Sequence record: MZ170040.1 | Reading direction: 5' to 3' (one strand) | Length of the DNA: 64,000 nucleotides | Source of the DNA: Escherichia phage vB_EcoM_FJ1 | Part shown: positions 2,622 through 53,306 of the stretch, piece by piece | How positions within the stretch are numbered: position 1 is the first letter of the stretch | Layout of the letters: each line of letters opens with the position of its first letter | The notes under the pieces: model-generated | What the model saw: only the letters and a program-made list of their open reading frames with translations | Databases searched by the model: none | Told to the model about the DNA's origin: nothing | Translations under genes and position numbers: made by a program

Positions 2622-3470
2622 TTAATCAACTGCTATTGGATGAATAGCATTAAACTTATGAAATGCTTCTGATTTTTCTTTACGAGAAACACACATGCGA
2701 AGAACCTTTAATGGCTCGTCTTCTTCACCCAACGATTTTCGTTTTTCAATATTAGAAGTTTTCCAACGAGCTTGCTCTGGAAACTCTCTATTGATTTGCT
2801 CAAGCGCTCTATTATGTTTAGAATTACTACGAATTGAACTGCACCCGCCGGGAGCGTGTGATTTTCCAGATACAACTAGATATTTGAACAAGGCCAAATG
2901 CGGATAACCTTGATTAATTAAATTGAGAAATGCGTACATATCTTCACATAAATCAATTTTTCCATACCCAATTTGTTCTGTCGTAAGTTTTCCGAGGTCA
3001 TACCATGTATTCGTGAATCCATATGAGTTTTCACGATAATTACCCCAAGATGAAGTAATTTTAAAAATTGGTAGACGAGCATGACCGTGATAATACCCGC
3101 AATCCATAGCATCCTCAACGTATTGAATTAATTCATAGAACTGTTCACGAGTTAATTGATTAATTTTATCTACGCGCCGTTTATCGTCTCTCTTTCGTAT
3201 TGAACTCATACGAATAGTAGTATCATCATCAATCATCCAGATTCGTTGACCTGCATACATATCAGTAATTGCTTTACGAGTACCGGCAATTCCATTAACA
3301 TCATCAGGAATAGTTACAATTTTAGCTCTAGACCCATAAGCATCATAATAAGCTTTTTCTTCGTGTTCACGCACTACAATATGTGGTTCATAATCAGTCG
3401 GAAACATATCAAGGGCAGAAACTGCCCCTACACGTTGATAGCTTGGAATTACGAATTGAATCATTTCCAC
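2622..3470 (-). CDS. glycosyltransferase (DxD, GT-A-like) at the beta-gt locus; not T4 beta-glucosyltransferase
   Basis: 282-aa ORF between uvsX and gene 42 where T4 has the 351-aa beta-gt; contains WMIDDD motif; no resemblance to the T4 beta-gt sequence I recall. Confidence 0.5.
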   Translation of the reverse strand: MEMIQFVIPSYQRVGAVSALDMFPTDYEPHIVVREHEEKAYYDAYGSRAKIVTIPDDVNGIAGTRKAITDMYAGQRIWMIDDDTTIRMSSIRKRDDKRRVDKINQLTREQFYELIQYVEDAMDCGYYHGHARLPIFKITSSWGNYRENSYGFTNTWYDLGKLTTEQIGYGKIDLCEDMYAFLNLINQGYPHLALFKYLVVSGKSHAPGGCSSIRSNSKHNRALEQINREFPEQARWKTSNIEKRKSLGEEDEPLKVLRMCVSRKEKSEAFHKFNAIHPIAVD

Positions 3471-4201
3471 TCACCGTTATAATCTTTTTTCACAATATGA
3501 GTTTCGCCAGTATTCCACCAATGATCAACCAAGTAAAAATGACGAGAATATACATGAAGACTTCCAACATTCCATATAATAGAACCTGCTTTATACTGAC
3601 GAGTTGAATCGCCTGCATTCAAATCAGATACTAATTTATCTAATACGTATTTTTGCCATGCATAATCATTACGGAATCCGAAGACCACGTCATTTGAGCG
3701 CATGCTTACTACTGCATTGACTTTCTTATCACGAATCAGGTACTGTACTGTATTAGTACACATGAAATCCGACATGCCATCTTTATTGTAGTCAAACTGC
3801 ATGGATGGACGAGTATAAATCATGATACCGCGTCGAGAATCAGGATTTTGACCAAGTTCAGCTAAACACATATCATACTGGGCATAGTTATCTTCTGACC
3901 AGATGGCCCAACCATAATTCGAGTTAATTTCGCCTTTAGAAGATGCTACCTGCTGCCAAATCTTCGGCGTTTCACCTGGAATATCTTTAACAAACAGACT
4001 TTGAGACTTATACCATTCAAGTTCACGCTGAATGTATTCATCATTAAGAGCGCCAAAAATAAACGGTTCATCTGCTACAAATGATGCGCCAATAATTTCA
4101 ATAGTTTTAACACCAGTTTTATCAATTACGAAATCTTTTTCCTTTAATGCAATTCCCAAATGAAGACGGATTTCTTCAACTGTCAAAGAGTCATTAATCA
4201 T
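3461..4201 (-). CDS. 42: dCMP hydroxymethylase
   Basis: 246-aa ORF, same length and position as T4 gp42; thymidylate-synthase-like fold motifs. Confidence 0.9.
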   Translation of the reverse strand: MINDSLTVEEIRLHLGIALKEKDFVIDKTGVKTIEIIGASFVADEPFIFGALNDEYIQRELEWYKSQSLFVKDIPGETPKIWQQVASSKGEINSNYGWAIWSEDNYAQYDMCLAELGQNPDSRRGIMIYTRPSMQFDYNKDGMSDFMCTNTVQYLIRDKKVNAVVSMRSNDVVFGFRNDYAWQKYVLDKLVSDLNAGDSTRQYKAGSIIWNVGSLHVYSRHFYLVDHWWNTGETHIVKKDYNGEWK

Positions 4202-13477: not shown

Positions 13478-14332
13478 TCACAATGAAGAAAATTCTTTAA
13501 CTAAAGCCTGTAATGAAGCCTCTATTGGATATCCGTTCTTAACTAACATTTTCCTAAACATCACATGTTTAGGACGATTATATGATATCCACAATTCATA
13601 CAATTTATCTTTATTATCCCAATGATAGCCTTTTCGTCGAGATGCTATATGAGCTTTTCTAATCTCCGGATTTTTCCAACTAGCAGCTACTGAATTTGAT
13701 ATAGCTATTTTATATTCAGGTTTTGATAAAGCAGCACGAACAGCCTTTTGGTGTTTAATTTTATTTTCTTCGTTATTAAACCATTCCCTTGAAGCCATTG
13801 AAATTTTTTGTTTTGTTTTAAAATTATTTAATCTTTCTTTGTTATCTTTCCTATTTTTTGCTACTGAAAAATATTTTAATGCCCTTTCTCTAGCAGCATT
13901 TCTATTTTGTGGATTTGAATAATACTGTTGAAGCCTTTTTGATATTGTGTCACTTACATCTTGTTTTATAAAACTATATTCAGCAGCTATTAAATCAACT
14001 TCGGCTAAAGATAAATTTTTATATGTTTTTCCTGACATCATTCTATTTAAAGCATTTAGCATTTTTCCATTTTTACCTTTTGCTAATAAGAAATGTGCTT
14101 TAAAATGATTAAAATGACTTAAATTAACTAAATTCCATGTAGATTTTAAATATTCAGGAAATATTGATTTAGGAAGCACGTGATGTGCTTCCGTTTTACC
14201 TGGAGTTTTAACAGTTGAATTCATAGAAATAAAATTAATGTAAGACTTGGCGTCTTCTTCACTCAACGCTAATTTTTCAACTAATTCCTTTATTAAAAAT
14301 TCATCATTAATGTCAAGTTTAAAATTCTTCAC
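13478..14332 (-). CDS. HNH-family homing endonuclease-like protein
   Basis: 284 aa, GTG start overlapping the upstream stop; HHVLPKS...N...HFNHFKAH HNH-like motif; lysine-rich, AT-rich; inserted between genes 47 and 46. Confidence 0.65.
   Translation of the reverse strand: MKNFKLDINDEFLIKELVEKLALSEEDAKSYINFISMNSTVKTPGKTEAHHVLPKSIFPEYLKSTWNLVNLSHFNHFKAHFLLAKGKNGKMLNALNRMMSGKTYKNLSLAEVDLIAAEYSFIKQDVSDTISKRLQQYYSNPQNRNAARERALKYFSVAKNRKDNKERLNNFKTKQKISMASREWFNNEENKIKHQKAVRAALSKPEYKIAISNSVAASWKNPEIRKAHIASRRKGYHWDNKDKLYELWISYNRPKHVMFRKMLVKNGYPIEASLQALVKEFSSL
14296..14332. repeat. direct repeat copy A (about 37 bp, core 18 bp exact)
   Basis: ATTCATCATTAATGTCAA at 14299-14316 recurs at 14502-14519 with similar flanks; encodes DINDEF in both the HNH N-terminus and the upstream ORF. 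Confidence 0.7.
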
Positions 14333-15971: not shown

Positions 15972-17174
15972 TTATTTTGTAATAATGTCAAACTGTTCTT
16001 TAAAACAGAAGCTTGAATCTTGATGCTGATACAAAAATTCATATGCTTTTTCTCGCTCACGGTCATAAAGAGCTCGGTCAGATGACAGTTCTTTAATACG
16101 CTCGAATGTTGATTCCATGTCATTTTCATCAAACCAAATGATACCGCTATCATGCGAGGTCAAAGGAGTATTATCAACACGGAATTTTAAATTTTCGCCA
16201 GTAGATTTCCAGAAAACAGGAATTGTACCGCAAGCACCTAATTCAAGATGAGTATATTCTAGTGAGCGTTGTAAGTATTTCTGGTTAAGTTTACTCAACT
16301 GATATCCAAAGCCAGATTTACTCATTCGTTCAAGCATTTCACTATTAATATAACAATCTAGGATTTGTGCCGGTTGATTCGGCGTGAGATTCATTTTATC
16401 GATCTCACGATTACCGTAATATTCATACGGAATACCTTTTTCCTTAATTGCAATAAAAGCAGGGGAACGTTCAAGACCTTCCATTACAGTGGATTTACCA
16501 GCAGGTTTTAAGAATTTTTCGTGAAAATCAAACATCTGGTAAAAACCTTTCCATGTAGTCGTACGACCAATCCAACGATTGATATTCATGTTAATTTCAG
16601 AAACATCTTTCCAGTAGGTTGATCGAACTTTCGCAATATCCATAGGAGGCTGAAAGTTATATACGGTCGGTGCTTCTTCAATATCATCAAACAGAGAAAC
16701 AGTTTCTGGATACCATTCTTTCATCAAAACTTTATTAAAATCGCCATTATCAGAATGACTAAAAATAACATCAGCTCGACGAACAGTTTCTTCTAATCCC
16801 AAATTTCGACGCAAAGAAAGAACAGAATGATCATGCTGATAAACTACAACACGAATAGAAGGTTTAATATTATCTAAAAGTTTTTTATAGTTATTAATCG
16901 TGGCTTCTTGAACGGAAGTAGCAGGAACAGAATTAATAATTAGAATATCACAATCATTTACCAGCTTAAGTGCTTTATCGTATTCTTTAGCTAAAATAAC
17001 TGGAATTGAAAATGATTTGTGGTCATGAGAACTTGTACGAGTAAATGATTTATCTTTAGCATAAACCAAAGTTACTTCATGACCATTCTTAATAAACCAA
17101 TCACGTTGCTCAAGAGAAAATTTAGTTACACCACAACCTTCAAGACCTCGAGCCATAAAAATACATACTTTCAT
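15972..17174 (-). CDS. a-gt: DNA alpha-glucosyltransferase
   Basis: 400-aa ORF, near-identical to T4 alpha-glucosyltransferase as recalled (MKVCIFMARGLEGCGVTKFSLEQRDWFIKNGHEVTLVYAK...). Confidence 0.9.
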   Translation of the reverse strand: MKVCIFMARGLEGCGVTKFSLEQRDWFIKNGHEVTLVYAKDKSFTRTSSHDHKSFSIPVILAKEYDKALKLVNDCDILIINSVPATSVQEATINNYKKLLDNIKPSIRVVVYQHDHSVLSLRRNLGLEETVRRADVIFSHSDNGDFNKVLMKEWYPETVSLFDDIEEAPTVYNFQPPMDIAKVRSTYWKDVSEINMNINRWIGRTTTWKGFYQMFDFHEKFLKPAGKSTVMEGLERSPAFIAIKEKGIPYEYYGNREIDKMNLTPNQPAQILDCYINSEMLERMSKSGFGYQLSKLNQKYLQRSLEYTHLELGACGTIPVFWKSTGENLKFRVDNTPLTSHDSGIIWFDENDMESTFERIKELSSDRALYDREREKAYEFLYQHQDSSFCFKEQFDIITK

Positions 17175-21685: not shown

Positions 21686-23499
21686 TGGTGTTTAACCCTA
21701 TGCATGATTTCTTTATTTTTGCCGAGATTAAATCCGCGTTCGTTCGGGTTTCCAAGATAGCCGCATGTTCTTCTTATTGTGTTCATCTTTTTAGGATCAG
21801 TTTCTCCACAAATAGAACAAACAAATCCGTTTTCAGTAGGAGTCATTTCATGAGTGCTTCCACACGTAAAACATTTATCTACTGGCATGTTAACACCAAA
21901 ATAATCTAAATGTTGTGCAGCATAATCCCATACAGCCTCAAGACCTTTTAGGTTATTTTTCATATCAGGAAGTTCAACATAAGAAATGTGACCACCTGTC
22001 GCAATGAAATGATATGGTGCTTCACGAGAAATCTTTTCAAACGGAGTGATATTTTCTTCTACTGAAACATGGAAACTATTAGTGTACCAACCTTTATCAG
22101 TAACATCTTTTACGCTTCCATATTTTTCAGTATCAAGTTTACAGAAGCGATAGCAAAGGTTTTCAGCAGGAGTAGAATACAAGCTAAAAGCAAAACCGGT
22201 TCTTTCGGTCCACTGTTTAAGATGAGCATTCATCTTAGTTAAAATTTCTTGTCCAATATCACGACCGACAAGAATATTCAATTCGTGAATACCAATGTAT
22301 CCTAAGGACACTGAACTTCTACCGTTTTTAAATAACTCAATTATGTCGTCATCAGGTTTAAGACGAACCCCGAATGCACCTTCTTGGTAAAGAATAGGAG
22401 CAACAGTAGCTTTAACTCCTTTTAAGGAACTAATTCTACACATCAAAGCTTCAAAACACAAATCCATACGTTCATTAAATAGCTCAACAAATTTCTGTTC
22501 ATTGAACTGTGTTCCAATATAAGAATCTAACGCGATGCGAGGAAGATTCAGTGTTACAACACCAAGATTATTACGTCCATCAAGAATTTCATTACCAGTC
22601 GAATCTTTCCATACGCTCAAGAAACTACGGCATCCCATCGGAGAAACAGGAACAGATGAACCAGTGATAGCTTTATTGTTCTTGGCTGAAATAATATCAG
22701 GATACATCCTTTTGCTTGCGCACTCTAGAGCAAGCTGCTTAATATCATAGTTCGGATCGTCTTTGTAAAGATTAACACCTTCTTCAACGAACATAACAAG
22801 CTTAGGGAAAATAGGAGTTATCCCATCACGACCAAGACCTTTAATACGATTTTTCAGAATTGCTTTCTGAATCATTCGTTCAGTCCAGTCAGTTCCCGTA
22901 CCAAATGTAATTGTTACAAAAGGCGTTTGTCCGTTTGAACTAAAGAGAGTATTTACTTCATATTCATAAGCTTGGAATGCATCATATACATCTTTTTCTG
23001 TTTTAGATTGAGCATAATTTAACGCATCAGCGATTTGCCATTTTTCTGCATCCTCAATATGTTTTGCATAGGTGCGTTTAACATAAGGAGAAAGTACTTT
23101 ATCTACATTCGCAAAAGTCGTTCCGCCGTATTGATGGGAAGCAACCTGTGCAGTAATTTGTGCCATAATTGCAGTAGCAACACCGATTGATTTAGGAGTT
23201 TCAATCTGTGCATTACCAAGCTTAAATCCATTCTCAAGCATTCCTTTTAAATCTACTAAACAGCAATTAGTAAAAGGCAATGATATACTGTAATCTAAAT
23301 CATGAAAATGAATTAATCCAACATTATGGGCATTTACAATATGACTTGGAAGAATACGACAAGCGATATGTTTAGAAACAATACCGGCCATTAAATCTCT
23401 TTTTGTTGGAAAGACACGAGAATCTTTGTTGGCGTTTTCGGTATTTAATTCTTTATCTTTATTTGAAATAAAATTTAAAACATCTTTCTCTAAAGACAT
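21682..23499 (-). CDS. nrdD: anaerobic ribonucleotide reductase, class III (intronless)
   Basis: Uninterrupted 605-aa ORF; C-terminal zinc ribbon CFTCGSTHE...CSICG and glycyl-radical motif RRTCGYLG. Confidence 0.95.
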   Translation of the reverse strand: MSLEKDVLNFISNKDKELNTENANKDSRVFPTKRDLMAGIVSKHIACRILPSHIVNAHNVGLIHFHDLDYSISLPFTNCCLVDLKGMLENGFKLGNAQIETPKSIGVATAIMAQITAQVASHQYGGTTFANVDKVLSPYVKRTYAKHIEDAEKWQIADALNYAQSKTEKDVYDAFQAYEYEVNTLFSSNGQTPFVTITFGTGTDWTERMIQKAILKNRIKGLGRDGITPIFPKLVMFVEEGVNLYKDDPNYDIKQLALECASKRMYPDIISAKNNKAITGSSVPVSPMGCRSFLSVWKDSTGNEILDGRNNLGVVTLNLPRIALDSYIGTQFNEQKFVELFNERMDLCFEALMCRISSLKGVKATVAPILYQEGAFGVRLKPDDDIIELFKNGRSSVSLGYIGIHELNILVGRDIGQEILTKMNAHLKQWTERTGFAFSLYSTPAENLCYRFCKLDTEKYGSVKDVTDKGWYTNSFHVSVEENITPFEKISREAPYHFIATGGHISYVELPDMKNNLKGLEAVWDYAAQHLDYFGVNMPVDKCFTCGSTHEMTPTENGFVCSICGETDPKKMNTIRRTCGYLGNPNERGFNLGKNKEIMHRVKHQ

Positions 23500-24311
23500 A
23501 ATTCTAATTTATCCTTTTGAAATTCTTCGTCTAAATATGGGTTCCAACCCATTTTAAACCTTTTGATGAAATTATCAATTCTAAATTTCGGTAAGTTTAA
23601 ATCCGCAAAAATAGATGATTTACTTTTAAAATCTGGACCTAAATAATCATATAAAATTTCTGCGTATTTTAACCATAATATACAAGTACCAGATTTAATT
23701 GCGTTCGGAGTTTTCCAAGGTTTTACACCATACATCGGATTTCCACTTCCTTTATGCCTGATAGAAGATGAAATTCCAATTTTAATTTTAGCTTCCTTTG
23801 TATGCGAAAATCCACGATGCTGATTTTCTTTCCAGTATTTTTTAGAAGCTTCTGATATTTTCTTTCTGGCTAAATTAGTATGATGCTTTCCATAAAATCC
23901 ATGATTTTTGCCTTTATTACGATTTCTTTTAATCATGGTTATTGATTGCTTTTCTCTAGTTTCTTTAGAAGGAGAAATACCATATGTCGTAAATTTGCCA
24001 TCAGCATATGCTAAATTAAAATACTCTTTATTCCATACATCTTTTTCTATATTCTTTTGAAATTCAGCTTCAATGCTAGTTATTTGTTCATCTCCGACTA
24101 ATTGAAAATATAATATTTCAACTTTCGGCGTTTCTTTCAATAAGGCTTTTTGAAATTCGGAAGATGACGAAGACGAATAATAAAATTTACCATTTTTATC
24201 AATAATATTCGTTCCATCAAAAGTGCAATTGGTTTTACTTCCAATGTAATAATATGGTGGGGTTTTAGCATTAATTCTATTAATAAATGATAGTTTATAT
24301 ACTACATTCAT
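23490..24311 (-). CDS. GIY-YIG homing endonuclease-like protein (free-standing)
   Basis: 273 aa; N-terminal VVYKLSF...YYYIGSKTN (GIY...YIG spacing), NUMOD-like GKNHGFYGKHH and GSGNPMYG repeats; start overlaps the gp49 stop as ATGA. Confidence 0.7.
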   Translation of the reverse strand: MNVVYKLSFINRINAKTPPYYYIGSKTNCTFDGTNIIDKNGKFYYSSSSSSEFQKALLKETPKVEILYFQLVGDEQITSIEAEFQKNIEKDVWNKEYFNLAYADGKFTTYGISPSKETREKQSITMIKRNRNKGKNHGFYGKHHTNLARKKISEASKKYWKENQHRGFSHTKEAKIKIGISSSIRHKGSGNPMYGVKPWKTPNAIKSGTCILWLKYAEILYDYLGPDFKSKSSIFADLNLPKFRIDNFIKRFKMGWNPYLDEEFQKDKLELCL

Positions 24312-43580: not shown

Positions 43581-44164
43581 TGCATTCCGATTACGAAAAA
43601 CTGTGGACGAGTAATACCATCAATGCAACATTTAATATTACAGCAGCAGTGTACAGTGTCAATATGGACACTATAAATCTTATCCATATCAGGAGATTTG
43701 ACAGGCTCATCAATTATATACAAAATTCGCGAAAGCGATAAACCTCTGAACTTGCTTCCTTTATTACCAATAAAACTGCGCACAGAATCAGTAAATAAAC
43801 GAAAACGTATATCATCATTAGAATAACGCGAAAATTCCTTTTTAATGTTATTTGCAGAAATTTTAGCGTAAGCTGAAGTATTAGAAAGAACAATAACTGT
43901 TCCGCCATCATACAACCAATTAGCAGCAAAGTTAGTCACAGCAATTGATTTACCAGATTGACGTCCACCATCTAGTCGAAGTGTGCAATACTGTTTGAGT
44001 AAGTCTTCAAATGGTGGGATATAATCGTTTTTACAAATTTCTTCTACTCTAGCATCAGAATGGTGTGTAAAAGCATTCATCAGGGATAGATAAGGACCAG
44101 TTAAAAATGTTCTCATTTTGTTATCTCTAAATTTGGGCCATTCCGTGGCGCGTGAATTGTCCAT
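43577..44164 (-). CDS. small P-loop protein
   Basis: 195 aa; Walker A GGRQSGKS and Walker-B-like ILYIIDEP. Confidence 0.45.
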   Translation of the reverse strand: MDNSRATEWPKFRDNKMRTFLTGPYLSLMNAFTHHSDARVEEICKNDYIPPFEDLLKQYCTLRLDGGRQSGKSIAVTNFAANWLYDGGTVIVLSNTSAYAKISANNIKKEFSRYSNDDIRFRLFTDSVRSFIGNKGSKFRGLSLSRILYIIDEPVKSPDMDKIYSVHIDTVHCCCNIKCCIDGITRPQFFVIGMQ

Positions 44165-44269
44165 TTCTGTATTTACCCATTACCGCGCTTGGGCTCGACC
44201 TTATTACAGGTTGGCGGGAATCCCTCACAGAATCATGAGGTCCAGCTTGTTCCCATATTTCTTATTTGC

Positions 44270-44743
44270 TTATTTGAATGATTTAACGTACTGAATAGAA
44301 CCCTTACTATTCACAAAGGCAATTTTACCATTTTTATTATACATGGTAGCAGTACGCTGATAACCATAGGTTTGTTTACCAGATTGATAACCAACTAATG
44401 CAAAATTATCTTCACCCATTTTATTCTGTTTAGCGCGAATGCGTTCATGACCATGTGCCATAAGAACCTTAGCATCACCAGTTGCAATGGATCGACGAGT
44501 TTTTTCATCTTCAACTGCATTAACAAAGTCGTCAAATGAATCAAATTTAGCATGAGATTTATTATACAATTTTCCATCTACTGCATAATTATATCCCTGT
44601 ACATCCATCTCAACTTCTGTACCATCATCCAATACAGCAGTAATTTTTTGACCTTTTTTAAATTTCAAAAGATCAGTAAAAGATTCAGCAATAATTTGAG
44701 AATTAATAGCTGCTTCAGTGATAAATTCTTGATATGTTTTCAT
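44270..44743 (-). CDS. internal-protein-like capsid protein with N-terminal capsid targeting sequence
   Basis: 157 aa beginning MKTYQEFITEA, matching the T4 CTS consensus MKTYQEFIAE; sits next to denV where T4 has ipII/ipIII. Confidence 0.6.
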   Translation of the reverse strand: MKTYQEFITEAAINSQIIAESFTDLLKFKKGQKITAVLDDGTEVEMDVQGYNYAVDGKLYNKSHAKFDSFDDFVNAVEDEKTRRSIATGDAKVLMAHGHERIRAKQNKMGEDNFALVGYQSGKQTYGYQRTATMYNKNGKIAFVNSKGSIQYVKSFK

Positions 44744-44752
44744 GGGTTTCCT

Positions 44753-45169
44753 TTAAATGTAAATATTTTTGCCGTAATACTTGTACCAGTGTGGCTTCAT
44801 TAAAATTTTTTCATCAAGTCGTTGTTGACTCAATTTAATAGCTGATTTGCATGGATTATAATCATTTTTCCATTCTATTGGAATATCGCTGATGTCAGGA
44901 ACTTCAGTATCTTTTATACTGAACCCGCGTTTTAAGCATTCCGTTATAATGTCTAATTGACGCTTTCGCAAAAATTCTAACTTATCGTAAAAGAACGTAA
45001 CATGGCCAGAACCTAAAATAAACTCGGAAGATATTTTAAAATCTTTAACGCGCTTACCGTTTGCCACATGCTTACGAACTATACCAAAAACACGCGGCAA
45101 TTCACGGTATTCTGCGATTAAATGTTGATCAGCAAGTTCAGATACTAAAGTCAAATTAATACGAGTCAT
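44753..45169 (-). CDS. denV: endonuclease V (pyrimidine-dimer DNA glycosylase)
   Basis: 138 aa; [17 protein letters not shown]...WYKYYG matches T4 DenV as recalled. Confidence 0.9.
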
Positions 45170-45194
45170 TTTATCCCTCCAAGTAACTGTGAAT

Positions 45195-45224
45195 ATACTA
45201 TCACAATTCTAGGAGAAAGTAAAC
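45195..45224 (-). promoter_or_regulatory. early promoter upstream of denV
   Basis: GTTTAC at 45224-45219, TAGTAT 18 nt downstream. Confidence 0.45.
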
Positions 45225-45228
45225 AACT

Positions 45229-46197
<969 letters not shown>

Positions 46198-50610: not shown

Positions 50611-51276
50611 TTAAAATTTCATTTTTCGACCTTTAAACCATCCTTCTGGAATTGGGTCAGTTTTCTTAATACGTTTAGAAACTTTTTCATCTAATGAATG
50701 AATCCACATCATACCAAATTGGGAATTCTTTTCACCTTTTTGGTGATTATTTTTAGCATGAATTTCTTTCATTTTATTAATAGTTTCAAGAGTATGATGC
50801 TTATTTAAAAATCGGCTATTATTTAAAAATTTTTCTTTGTATTCAGGAGTTGACCACAAACGGTTAAATACATTTGAACCATTTTTACGATATTTTTCTT
50901 GAAGTAAAATATCATTTTTAAAACGTGACTTAAACGATTTAGCTCCTTTTAAACTAGCGTCTTTCTTCTGATTTAGCATCTCAGGAATATTTATATGATC
51001 CCATCCACCTTCACCGCCAAGTTTTAAATTATACACATCAGGTCTATTTAAAAACTCTTCTGTGACAATATTTTTCTCGGCTTCAAGCATAGATTCTTTA
51101 TCATCAAAATACTCTAATATTTCTTTAGAAAAATTTTCTATGCCATACTTATCTTGGGCTCTTTTTAATAATTTACCAGAACCCATATATCCATCATCTA
51201 AATTTTCGGTAGAATGCACACCAATATAAATTTTATTATTAATTTTATTTGTTATTTTATAAAGATAAAAATGCAT
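50611..51276 (-). CDS. segB: GIY-YIG homing endonuclease SegB-like
   Basis: ATG at 51276 gives 222 aa beginning MHFYLYKITNKINNKIYIGV (GIY...YIG); lies inside the tRNA cluster as T4 segB does; the longer track ORF would overlap tRNA-Tyr. Confidence 0.7.
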   Translation of the reverse strand: MHFYLYKITNKINNKIYIGVHSTENLDDGYMGSGKLLKRAQDKYGIENFSKEILEYFDDKESMLEAEKNIVTEEFLNRPDVYNLKLGGEGGWDHINIPEMLNQKKDASLKGAKSFKSRFKNDILLQEKYRKNGSNVFNRLWSTPEYKEKFLNNSRFLNKHHTLETINKMKEIHAKNNHQKGEKNSQFGMMWIHSLDEKVSKRIKKTDPIPEGWFKGRKMKF

Positions 51277-51322
51277 ATCAGTCCCTAATAAAGAACTGAG
51301 CGTCTCACGACGAGTCATAAAT

Positions 51323-53018: not shown

Positions 53019-53306
53019 TTACAAAAGATTTTTAGCAATAATCTTGAGATGTGCCGCAGAAATGTGTTTAGCTTTAAACAACGCAGTTTCTTCAGCAGGA
53101 GAGATAACGATTGTAGCACCATCCTTTTTAGCAGACCACCCATCACCTAGGTAAACAGTACCTTTGATTTCTTCGCCATCAACCAGACTAATCATTGGTT
53201 TACCTTCTCGTCCTTTATTTGCTTTAATAACTTCAGAAGTAAGAGTAGCCTCGGTAATGGTAGAAACCGGGGTAGTTGTAGAAGTAAATTCTTTAAATGT
53301 TTTCAT
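53019..53306 (-). CDS. internal protein I-like (CTS-bearing) at the ipI locus
   Basis: 95 aa beginning MKTFKEF (CTS-like), Lys/Ala-rich; sits between the tRNA region and 57B where T4 has ipI; same length as T4 IPI. Confidence 0.6.
   Translation of the reverse strand: MKTFKEFTSTTTPVSTITEATLTSEVIKANKGREGKPMISLVDGEEIKGTVYLGDGWSAKKDGATIVISPAEETALFKAKHISAAHLKIIAKNLL

Follow-up and report, generated by a model that had tools for sequence, protein, structure and literature searches.

The gene e locus of Escherichia phage vB_EcoM_FJ1 raises the question of which internal head protein it encodes, whether this protein travels in the virion, and what it might do in the infected cell. We analyzed a stretch of 64,000 nucleotides (MZ170040.1), hereafter the window. 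A minus-strand ORF with an ATG start encodes a product of 157 aa with the N-terminus MKTYQEFITEAAINSQ (longer start stretch, MKTYQEFITEAAINSQIIAESF), and a ribosome-binding site, AAAGGAAACCC, is located 5′ of the ATG. The gene and its leader elements are as follows.

44270..44743, minus strand: ip4 (IpIV) coding sequence, 157-aa precursor, stop codon included (ORF list, Pfam, PHROG, near-identity to RB68 and T2)
44714..44743, minus strand: predicted capsid targeting sequence MKTYQEFITE, codons 1-10, ending in the first candidate gp21 site, ITE/A (leader alignment)
44684..44692, minus strand: second conserved candidate gp21 site, IAE, codons 18-20, then S21 (14-sequence alignment)

The leader was compared with those of T4 IPII and IPIII, for which the references were taken from NC_000866. 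BLASTP and alignment showed that 10 of the first 11 residues of the ip4 product were the same as in IPII and IPIII, both of which begin with MKTYQEFIAEA. An earlier note on this DNA had described the start MKTYQEFITEA as near the T4 capsid targeting sequence, which was confirmed, and the ORF boundaries were exact. The targeting and processing positions Y4, F7, I8, and E10 were all the same as in IPII and IPIII. Mutagenesis of the IPIII leader has indicated that residues 4 and 7 matter in targeting and residues 8 and 10 in processing; residues 1-10 alone are enough for packaging, and the leader carries foreign proteins into the head (PMC9026906). In a six-frame scan of the window, such an N-terminus was found only twice, in ip4 and in the ORF at 53019..53306 (minus strand), indicating that the ip4 leader is no chance match.

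Next, the identity of the whole protein was analyzed. By tblastn, Ip4 was found in 470 of 50,697 phage records, 306 of them at an identity of at least 95%. Over all 157 residues, the window protein was 100% identical to that of RB68, 99.4% to those of T2 and PP01, 99-100% to that of RB32, and 98% to that of K3, so that one or no amino acid separates it from the RB68, T2, and PP01 proteins, a difference of no substance. The gene is annotated as ‘ip4’ in T2 (MH751506), as ‘Ip4’ in RB68 (NC_027979) and RB32 (NC_008515), and as ‘ipIV: IpIV internal head protein’ in PP01 (LC348379); the match in a viral structure library was UniProt Q38388, ‘Ip4 [Enterobacteria phage K3]’. Residues 1-157 matched profile positions 1-158 of the Pfam family DUF7412 (PF24183) with E=9e-96 and a score of 318.7 bits (curated threshold, 27). 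The full length also matched PHROG 3155 (‘internal virion protein’), with E=1.2e-101. Near-identity and the neighboring genes in RB68 both indicated orthology with the annotated ip4 genes. As judged from these matches, the ORF at 44270..44743 is almost certainly Ip4, a protein of the T4-type internal protein class. Ip4 is already known, having been named in the 1990s and widely annotated, and our analysis adds no new entity. The reading of the ORF as an unrecognized variant was thus withdrawn, since it is the same protein as the Ip4 of T2, RB32, RB68, and PP01, and a commoner one than IPII or IPIII. About ten internal-protein genes are credited to Repoila et al. 1994 (EMBO J 13:4181) in the accounts given by later papers (PMC12373910; PMC9026906). 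A literature search on the name ‘Ip4’ gave no matches. Some misannotations were also observed: Ip4 homologues are called ‘IpIII’ in Shigella phage Sf25 and ‘lp4 protein’ in vB_SenM-AKM_NP4, and a vs.8 homologue (2655-3188) is called ‘IpIII internal head protein’ in Klebsiella phage ValerieMcCarty01.

BLASTP aligned Ip4 with IPIII over residues 1-13 only, and with IPII weakly, 31% over 77 residues with E=7e-07, leaning on the common leader. PHROG matches of Ip4 to other internal-protein families were likewise confined to the N-terminus. The possibility of a close IPIII or IPII homologue was thus ruled out, the BLASTP similarity being essentially leader-bound, and the earlier statement that the protein differs from IPII and IPIII stood, with no convincing homology past the leader. 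Its length of 157 aa also suits neither T4 protein, as had been stated, IPII being 100 aa and IPIII 193 aa. The T4 proteins nevertheless resemble Ip4 in the N-terminal targeting sequence, in the nucleotide sequence of the 5′ leader with its ribosome-binding site, in the e-to-vs.8 neighborhood, and in being mildly basic when mature. They differ in their known targets, which are GmrSD-ECOR17 for IPIII and GmrSD-ECOR21 for IPII, whereas none is known for Ip4. Mature IPIII was found in 261 phage records and mature IPII in 198, compared to 470 for Ip4, indicating that T4 has a minority configuration at the e locus. Their history also appears to differ. Klebsiella-phage IPIII is ~88% identical to that of T4, whereas Ip4 in these phages, like the products of the neighboring genes, is 65-70% identical. 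IPIII and IPII of Klebsiella (Jiaodavirus) phages together showed 88-97% identity to those of T4, which is far above the ~65-72% observed between genera for Ip4, e, and gp42, suggesting that ipII/ipIII cassettes were recently transferred between genera.

The arrangement of the locus was then compared among phages, with the following gene orders.

Window: nudE-e-denV-ip4-vs.8
RB68: nudE-e-denV-ip4-vs.8, as in the window
T4: nudE-e-ipIII-ipII-denV-vs.8
T2: e-ip4-vs.8, without denV
PP01: e-ip10-ipIV-vs.8
Bas37: e-denV-vs.8, without an internal-protein gene

The earlier note had counted one gene here instead of two. A single gene is indeed present, but its slot is not that of T4 ipII/ipIII, which lie between e and denV, whereas ip4 of the window lies between denV and vs.8. 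In T2 and PP01, which have no denV at the locus, ip4 directly follows e or ip10, respectively. Two polymorphic internal-protein loci are known, the e-vs.8 region and the ipI region, and three observations placed ip4 in the former: its position in the denV-vs.8 interval, its T4 ipII-type leader, and the promoter/inverted-repeat cassette 5′ of denV. The joints of the locus, read from a four-way alignment of T4, T2, PP01, and the window, involve the following elements.

45170..45228, minus strand: putative early-promoter-like cassette GTTTAC...TAGTAT with an overlapping inverted repeat, TGTGATAGTATATTCACA, between e and denV (alignment)
44753..45169, minus strand: denV (endonuclease V), immediately upstream of ip4 (ORF, RB68 annotation)
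44744..44770, minus strand: 27-nt ‘ip leader’, AAAAATATTTACATTTAAAGGAAACCC (starting AAAAATATTTACATTTAAAGGAAAC), containing the ribosome-binding site and the last codons and stop of denV (alignment)
44120..44269, minus strand: conserved spacer 3′ of ip4, before the vs.8 start (MRTF at 44119) (four-way alignment)

The cassette at 45170..45228 was nearly the same as that between e and the first ip gene in T4 and PP01, and T2 showed the same inverted repeat between e and ip4. The 27-nt leader and the leader-coding sequence that follows were common to T4 ipII and ip4. The window denV ends with ...YGKNIYI* inside this ip leader, and the end of T4 denV differs. Because its last codons and stop are inside the leader, the recombination joint of denV with the ip4 cassette falls within the 3′ end of the denV gene. 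By this alignment, denV has been inserted in this phage with the promoter cassette on its 5′ side and the ip leader on its 3′ side, and denV and ip4 are probably co-transcribed. Elements of this type have been described at internal-protein loci, whose modular shuffling is already known (PMC2839356). The denV allele of the window was 100% identical to that of RB68, 98% to that of Bas37, and 78% to that of T4. At the other side of ip4, the spacer of ~150 nt varied hardly at all among T4, T2, PP01, and the window, and the sequence 5′ of it differs completely; by this comparison, the variable cassette region ends at the spacer on the right-hand side. It is relatively GC-rich, and is probably non-coding. 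In the T4 annotation, it encodes the N-terminal part of vs.8 (219 aa), a 9-nt deletion closes this frame in T2 and PP01, and an extra base in the window opens another frame to give a 195-aa ORF from 44164. The spacer gave no support for a structured RNA or for the remnant of a tRNA, as the fold z-score was −0.08, no tRNA was detected, and the sole Rfam match was far below threshold.

Transcription signals were examined by pattern search, and the nearest late promoters able to drive late ip4 expression by read-through were those 5′ of e.

45737..45757, minus strand: two tandem consensus T4 late promoters (TATAAATA), 5′ of e (pattern search)

No consensus late promoter was found by the pattern search between this site and ip4, so a dedicated late promoter of ip4 was rejected, and the minus strand showed no terminator-like site between the e late promoters and ip4. 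Since there is neither a late promoter directly before ip4 nor an intervening terminator-like site, late synthesis of Ip4 probably proceeds via read-through from e.

Processing of the precursor was considered from an alignment of 14 family members of four genera. F7 was invariant in all 14, as were E10 and E20, both in an (I/L/M)-x-E-(A/S/T) context; around E20, the context (I/L/M)-x-E-(S/A) was kept in every member. Both sites agree with the gp21 motif (L/I)-x-E plus a small residue, namely ITE/A at residues 8-11 and IAE/S at 18-21, and the invariance of E10 and E20 in a like context points to two candidate gp21 cleavage sites. IPI is known to lose 19 residues at ITE/A (PMC9026906). Cleavage of Ip4 possibly extends to E20. 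The mature form would have 147 aa, 16.5 kDa, and pI 9.1 if cut after E10, and 137 aa, 15.5 kDa, and pI 9.3 if cut after E20; either form is mildly basic, as are IPI*, IPII*, and IPIII*. The AlphaFold2 model of Ip4 had a moderate mean pLDDT of 74, and consisted of a helix at the N-terminus (residues 4-27) and, after it, a mixed beta/alpha domain. Foldseek of this model against the PDB returned nothing at E≤0.001, and thus no fold relative. A PDB sequence search and NCBIfam gave nothing meaningful, Pfam gave DUF7412 only, and no catalytic motifs were observed in Ip4. Virion proteomics for Ip4 was not found in the searched literature. The leader makes it very probable that Ip4 is packaged in the head and injected.

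The second N-terminus of this kind in the window belongs to another small gene.

53019..53306, minus strand: second internal-protein gene, IPI-like, 95 aa, MKTFKEFTSTTTPVSTITE/ATLTSEV..., with a 19-residue leader ending at ITE/A (motif scan and ORF list)

This ORF is probably the T4-type IPI, as judged from its sequence and from its position beside a 57B-like ORF. The window phage thus carries an IPI-like protein plus Ip4, and its e locus has neither IPII nor IPIII. Ip4 can be likened to T4 IPI/IPI*, which inhibits the GmrSD of E. coli CT596 and is a packaged, gp21-processed, and injected small basic protein. Another internal protein, Bas37_0260, is encoded at the ipI locus of Bas37, a phage without ip4. 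It is a non-homologous protein with nothing but the N-terminal packaging signal in common, and it demonstrates that type IV systems outside GmrSD are within reach of variant internal proteins. At the ipI locus of the window, no second such ORF was observed. Three putative free-standing homing endonuclease-like ORFs were seen in passing, all on the minus strand: a GIY-YIG/SegE-like one beside the tRNA region (50611-51318), one with a NUMOD3 motif (23490-24311), and one with an HH..P motif and no Pfam match (13478-14224).

We then analyzed how Ip4 has been inherited. The ip4 gene abuts or overlaps the e stop codon in phages of Gelderlandvirus (Salmonella), Jiaodavirus (Klebsiella), and Muldoonvirus (Serratia). 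Identities of the window proteins to those of the Salmonella, Klebsiella, and Serratia phages, respectively, were 71%, 65%, and 61% for Ip4 and 66%, 65%, and 64% for e (lysozyme); for nudE, the Salmonella phage gave no match, and the other two gave 50% and 40%. Pairwise dN/dS of ip4 was 0.02 within Tequatrovirus and 0.12 against the Salmonella phage, compared to 0.02-0.08 and 0.18 for e. By these measures, Ip4 behaves as a stably, vertically inherited gene under purifying selection, not as a fast-evolving cassette. When 1.8 billion representative proteins were searched with a profile, the only additions were three distant relatives, with E=1e-17 to 1e-22 and an identity of about 35%. They start with MNFEQFLNE/S, MNFKDFLNE/S, and ...SLNE/S, which are leaders of the internal-protein type. 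One of them is encoded directly 3′ of a weak denV-family gene, and another between 57B and vs homologues in a T4-like contig. The strong conservation of Ip4 fits an inhibitor of a conserved target, a function in head assembly or DNA packing, and another host target about equally well.

As for function, we propose the following course of events. The ip4 precursor would be made late by read-through from the gene e late promoters, as the leader and T4 genetics suggest, and may also be made early from the promoter cassette 5′ of denV. The 10-residue N-terminal targeting sequence would bring Ip4 into the prohead scaffolding core, where the prohead protease gp21 would cut the leader after E10 and possibly remove 10 further residues by a cut after E20. 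The mildly basic protein of 15.5-16.5 kDa (pI about 9.2) would stay in the head and be ejected into the cell with the DNA. In the cytoplasm, by analogy only, Ip4 would most likely bind and block a nuclease of the host directed at DNA with glycosylated hydroxymethylcytosine, i.e., a type IV modification-dependent restriction enzyme. This target would differ from the GmrSD variants that are paired with Ip1, Ip2, or Ip3 or have been tested so far. The whole chain, from the identity of Ip4 through packaging, processing, and injection to the anti-type-IV role, falls a little short of an even balance in our judgment, and the anti-type-IV-restriction role itself, which is drawn by analogy, is put forward tentatively.

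The analogy is drawn from internal proteins of known function. Growth on E. coli ECOR17 requires IPIII, and leaderless IPIII expressed in the cell works (Srikant et al. 2022; PMC9391042). Ip1, Ip2, and Ip3 block the GmrSD of CT596, ECOR21, and ECOR17, respectively, with no cross-protection (Silas et al. 2025; PMC12373910), and the internal-protein-like Bas37_0260 blocks McrBC according to a 2025 preprint (bioRxiv 10.1101/2025.11.20.689424). Thus, all four internal proteins of known function, Ip1, Ip2, and Ip3 (GmrSD) and Bas37_0260 (McrBC), act on type IV restriction. In the window, gp42 (dCMP hydroxymethylase) is encoded at 3461-4201, an alpha-glucosyltransferase at 15972-17174, and a second glycosyltransferase of the Pfam TAGT family (280 aa) at 2622-3464, where T4 has beta-gt beside gene 42, all on the minus strand. 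On the evidence of these genes, the phage makes hydroxymethylcytosine and glycosylates it. The TAGT-family gene at the beta-gt place implies T2/T6-type (gentiobiosyl) and not T4-type glucosylation; relatives annotate it as a beta-glucosyl-HMC-alpha-glucosyltransferase. A gp42 homologue with a neighboring glycosyltransferase was also found in Ip4-bearing S16-like Salmonella phages and in Klebsiella phages, and 137 Klebsiella phage records had gp42 compared to 135 with Ip4.

The anti-defense role suggested in the earlier note is the standing working hypothesis for internal proteins generally (PMC12373910, PMC9391042), and the sole published test of Ip4 that we located was negative: ip4-ip10 gave no reproducible inhibition of further active GmrSD classes (PMC12373910, Supplementary Fig. 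9). T2 is restricted by GmrSD-ECOR17 and GmrSD-ECOR21 (PMC12373910), and sequenced T2 has ip4, although the stock used may differ. Against the anti-restriction reading we also counted that Ip4 is unlike an arms-race protein, given its within-genus dN/dS and a cross-genus divergence equal to that of e. The proposed chain is also weakened by the failure to find Ip4 virion proteomics in the searched literature, by the lack of a consensus late promoter immediately 5′ of ip4, and by the moderate AlphaFold2 model, for which no structural relative hinted at a mechanism. The HIDEN-SEQ fitness data of Bas37 were not applicable, as Bas37 has no ip4 and bas37_0232 is vs.8. The notion that variant internal proteins counter host defenses reportedly dates from 1994.

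Other readings were weighed against this proposal. Ip4 could be mainly a structural or assembly protein, a basic core component that helps scaffold assembly or neutralizes and organizes the packaged DNA without a specific host target. The strong purifying selection, the apparently vertical inheritance, the fixed place directly after e in four genera, the mildly basic character, and the absence of an inhibitory target in the GmrSD screen would all suit such a function, and in T4 IPIII mutants, heads assemble more slowly and the burst is reduced (PMC9026906). However, ip4 is dispensable in nature, as Bas37 has no internal-protein gene at the locus and T4 has no ip4, and T4 remains viable without any of its three internal proteins (PMC9026906); moreover, IPIII, despite its assembly phenotype, still proved to be a GmrSD inhibitor. 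We regard a mainly structural Ip4 as unlikely. A different proposal makes Ip4 an injected effector against a target outside type IV restriction, either another first-response defense or a host-takeover function like that of the Alt ADP-ribosyltransferase, which shows that injected head proteins need not inhibit nucleases. The negative results against all GmrSD classes tested agree with this, and conservation in Escherichia, Salmonella, Klebsiella, and Serratia phages suggests a target shared by hosts, not a strain-specific nuclease. Nevertheless, the lack of catalytic motifs, of any Pfam family besides DUF7412, of a PDB sequence match, and of a fold relative counts against it, and the small internal proteins with such leaders characterized so far all act on type IV restriction. 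We hold it to be rather unlikely, if somewhat less so than a structural role.

The remaining alternative concerns the leader itself, which could be a relic of recombination, with Ip4 staying out of the head as an ordinary early protein of the cytoplasm. Unrelated ip genes have the nucleotide sequence of the leader and the 5′ UTR in common, and these serve as joints for recombination (PMC2839356), and ip4 of the window is behind an early-type promoter and denV, not its own late promoter. Yet the leader with F7, E10, and the cleavage context was kept in members of 61-71% identity and was recognizable at about 35%, and ten residues suffice for packaging in T4 (PMC9026906). Conservation at the protein level would not persist without function, which argues for a functional leader, and we consider the relic very improbable. 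A further reading starts from inheritance: Ip4 would be no further shuffled cassette but an old, vertically inherited e-locus internal protein of Tequatrovirus, Gelderlandvirus, Jiaodavirus, and Muldoonvirus under endolysin-strength selection, which would therefore hit a target conserved in Enterobacterales outside the tested GmrSD classes. This reading is doubtful as it stands.

Our analysis adds that Ip4 appears conserved and vertically inherited, that it has a second conserved candidate protease site, and that denV has been inserted in this phage 3′ of the promoter cassette, ahead of the ip leader. If the last reading is true, Ip4 would be processed twice, with the conserved second (I/L/M)xE site setting the end of a propeptide of 20 residues. 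Of all phage products, injected internal proteins encounter host immunity first, and Ip4, as the commonest internal protein of the e locus with 470 phage records and no known target, is a sensible candidate for experiments. Its target, if the last reading holds, would define a new defense/counter-defense pair or a new step in host takeover.
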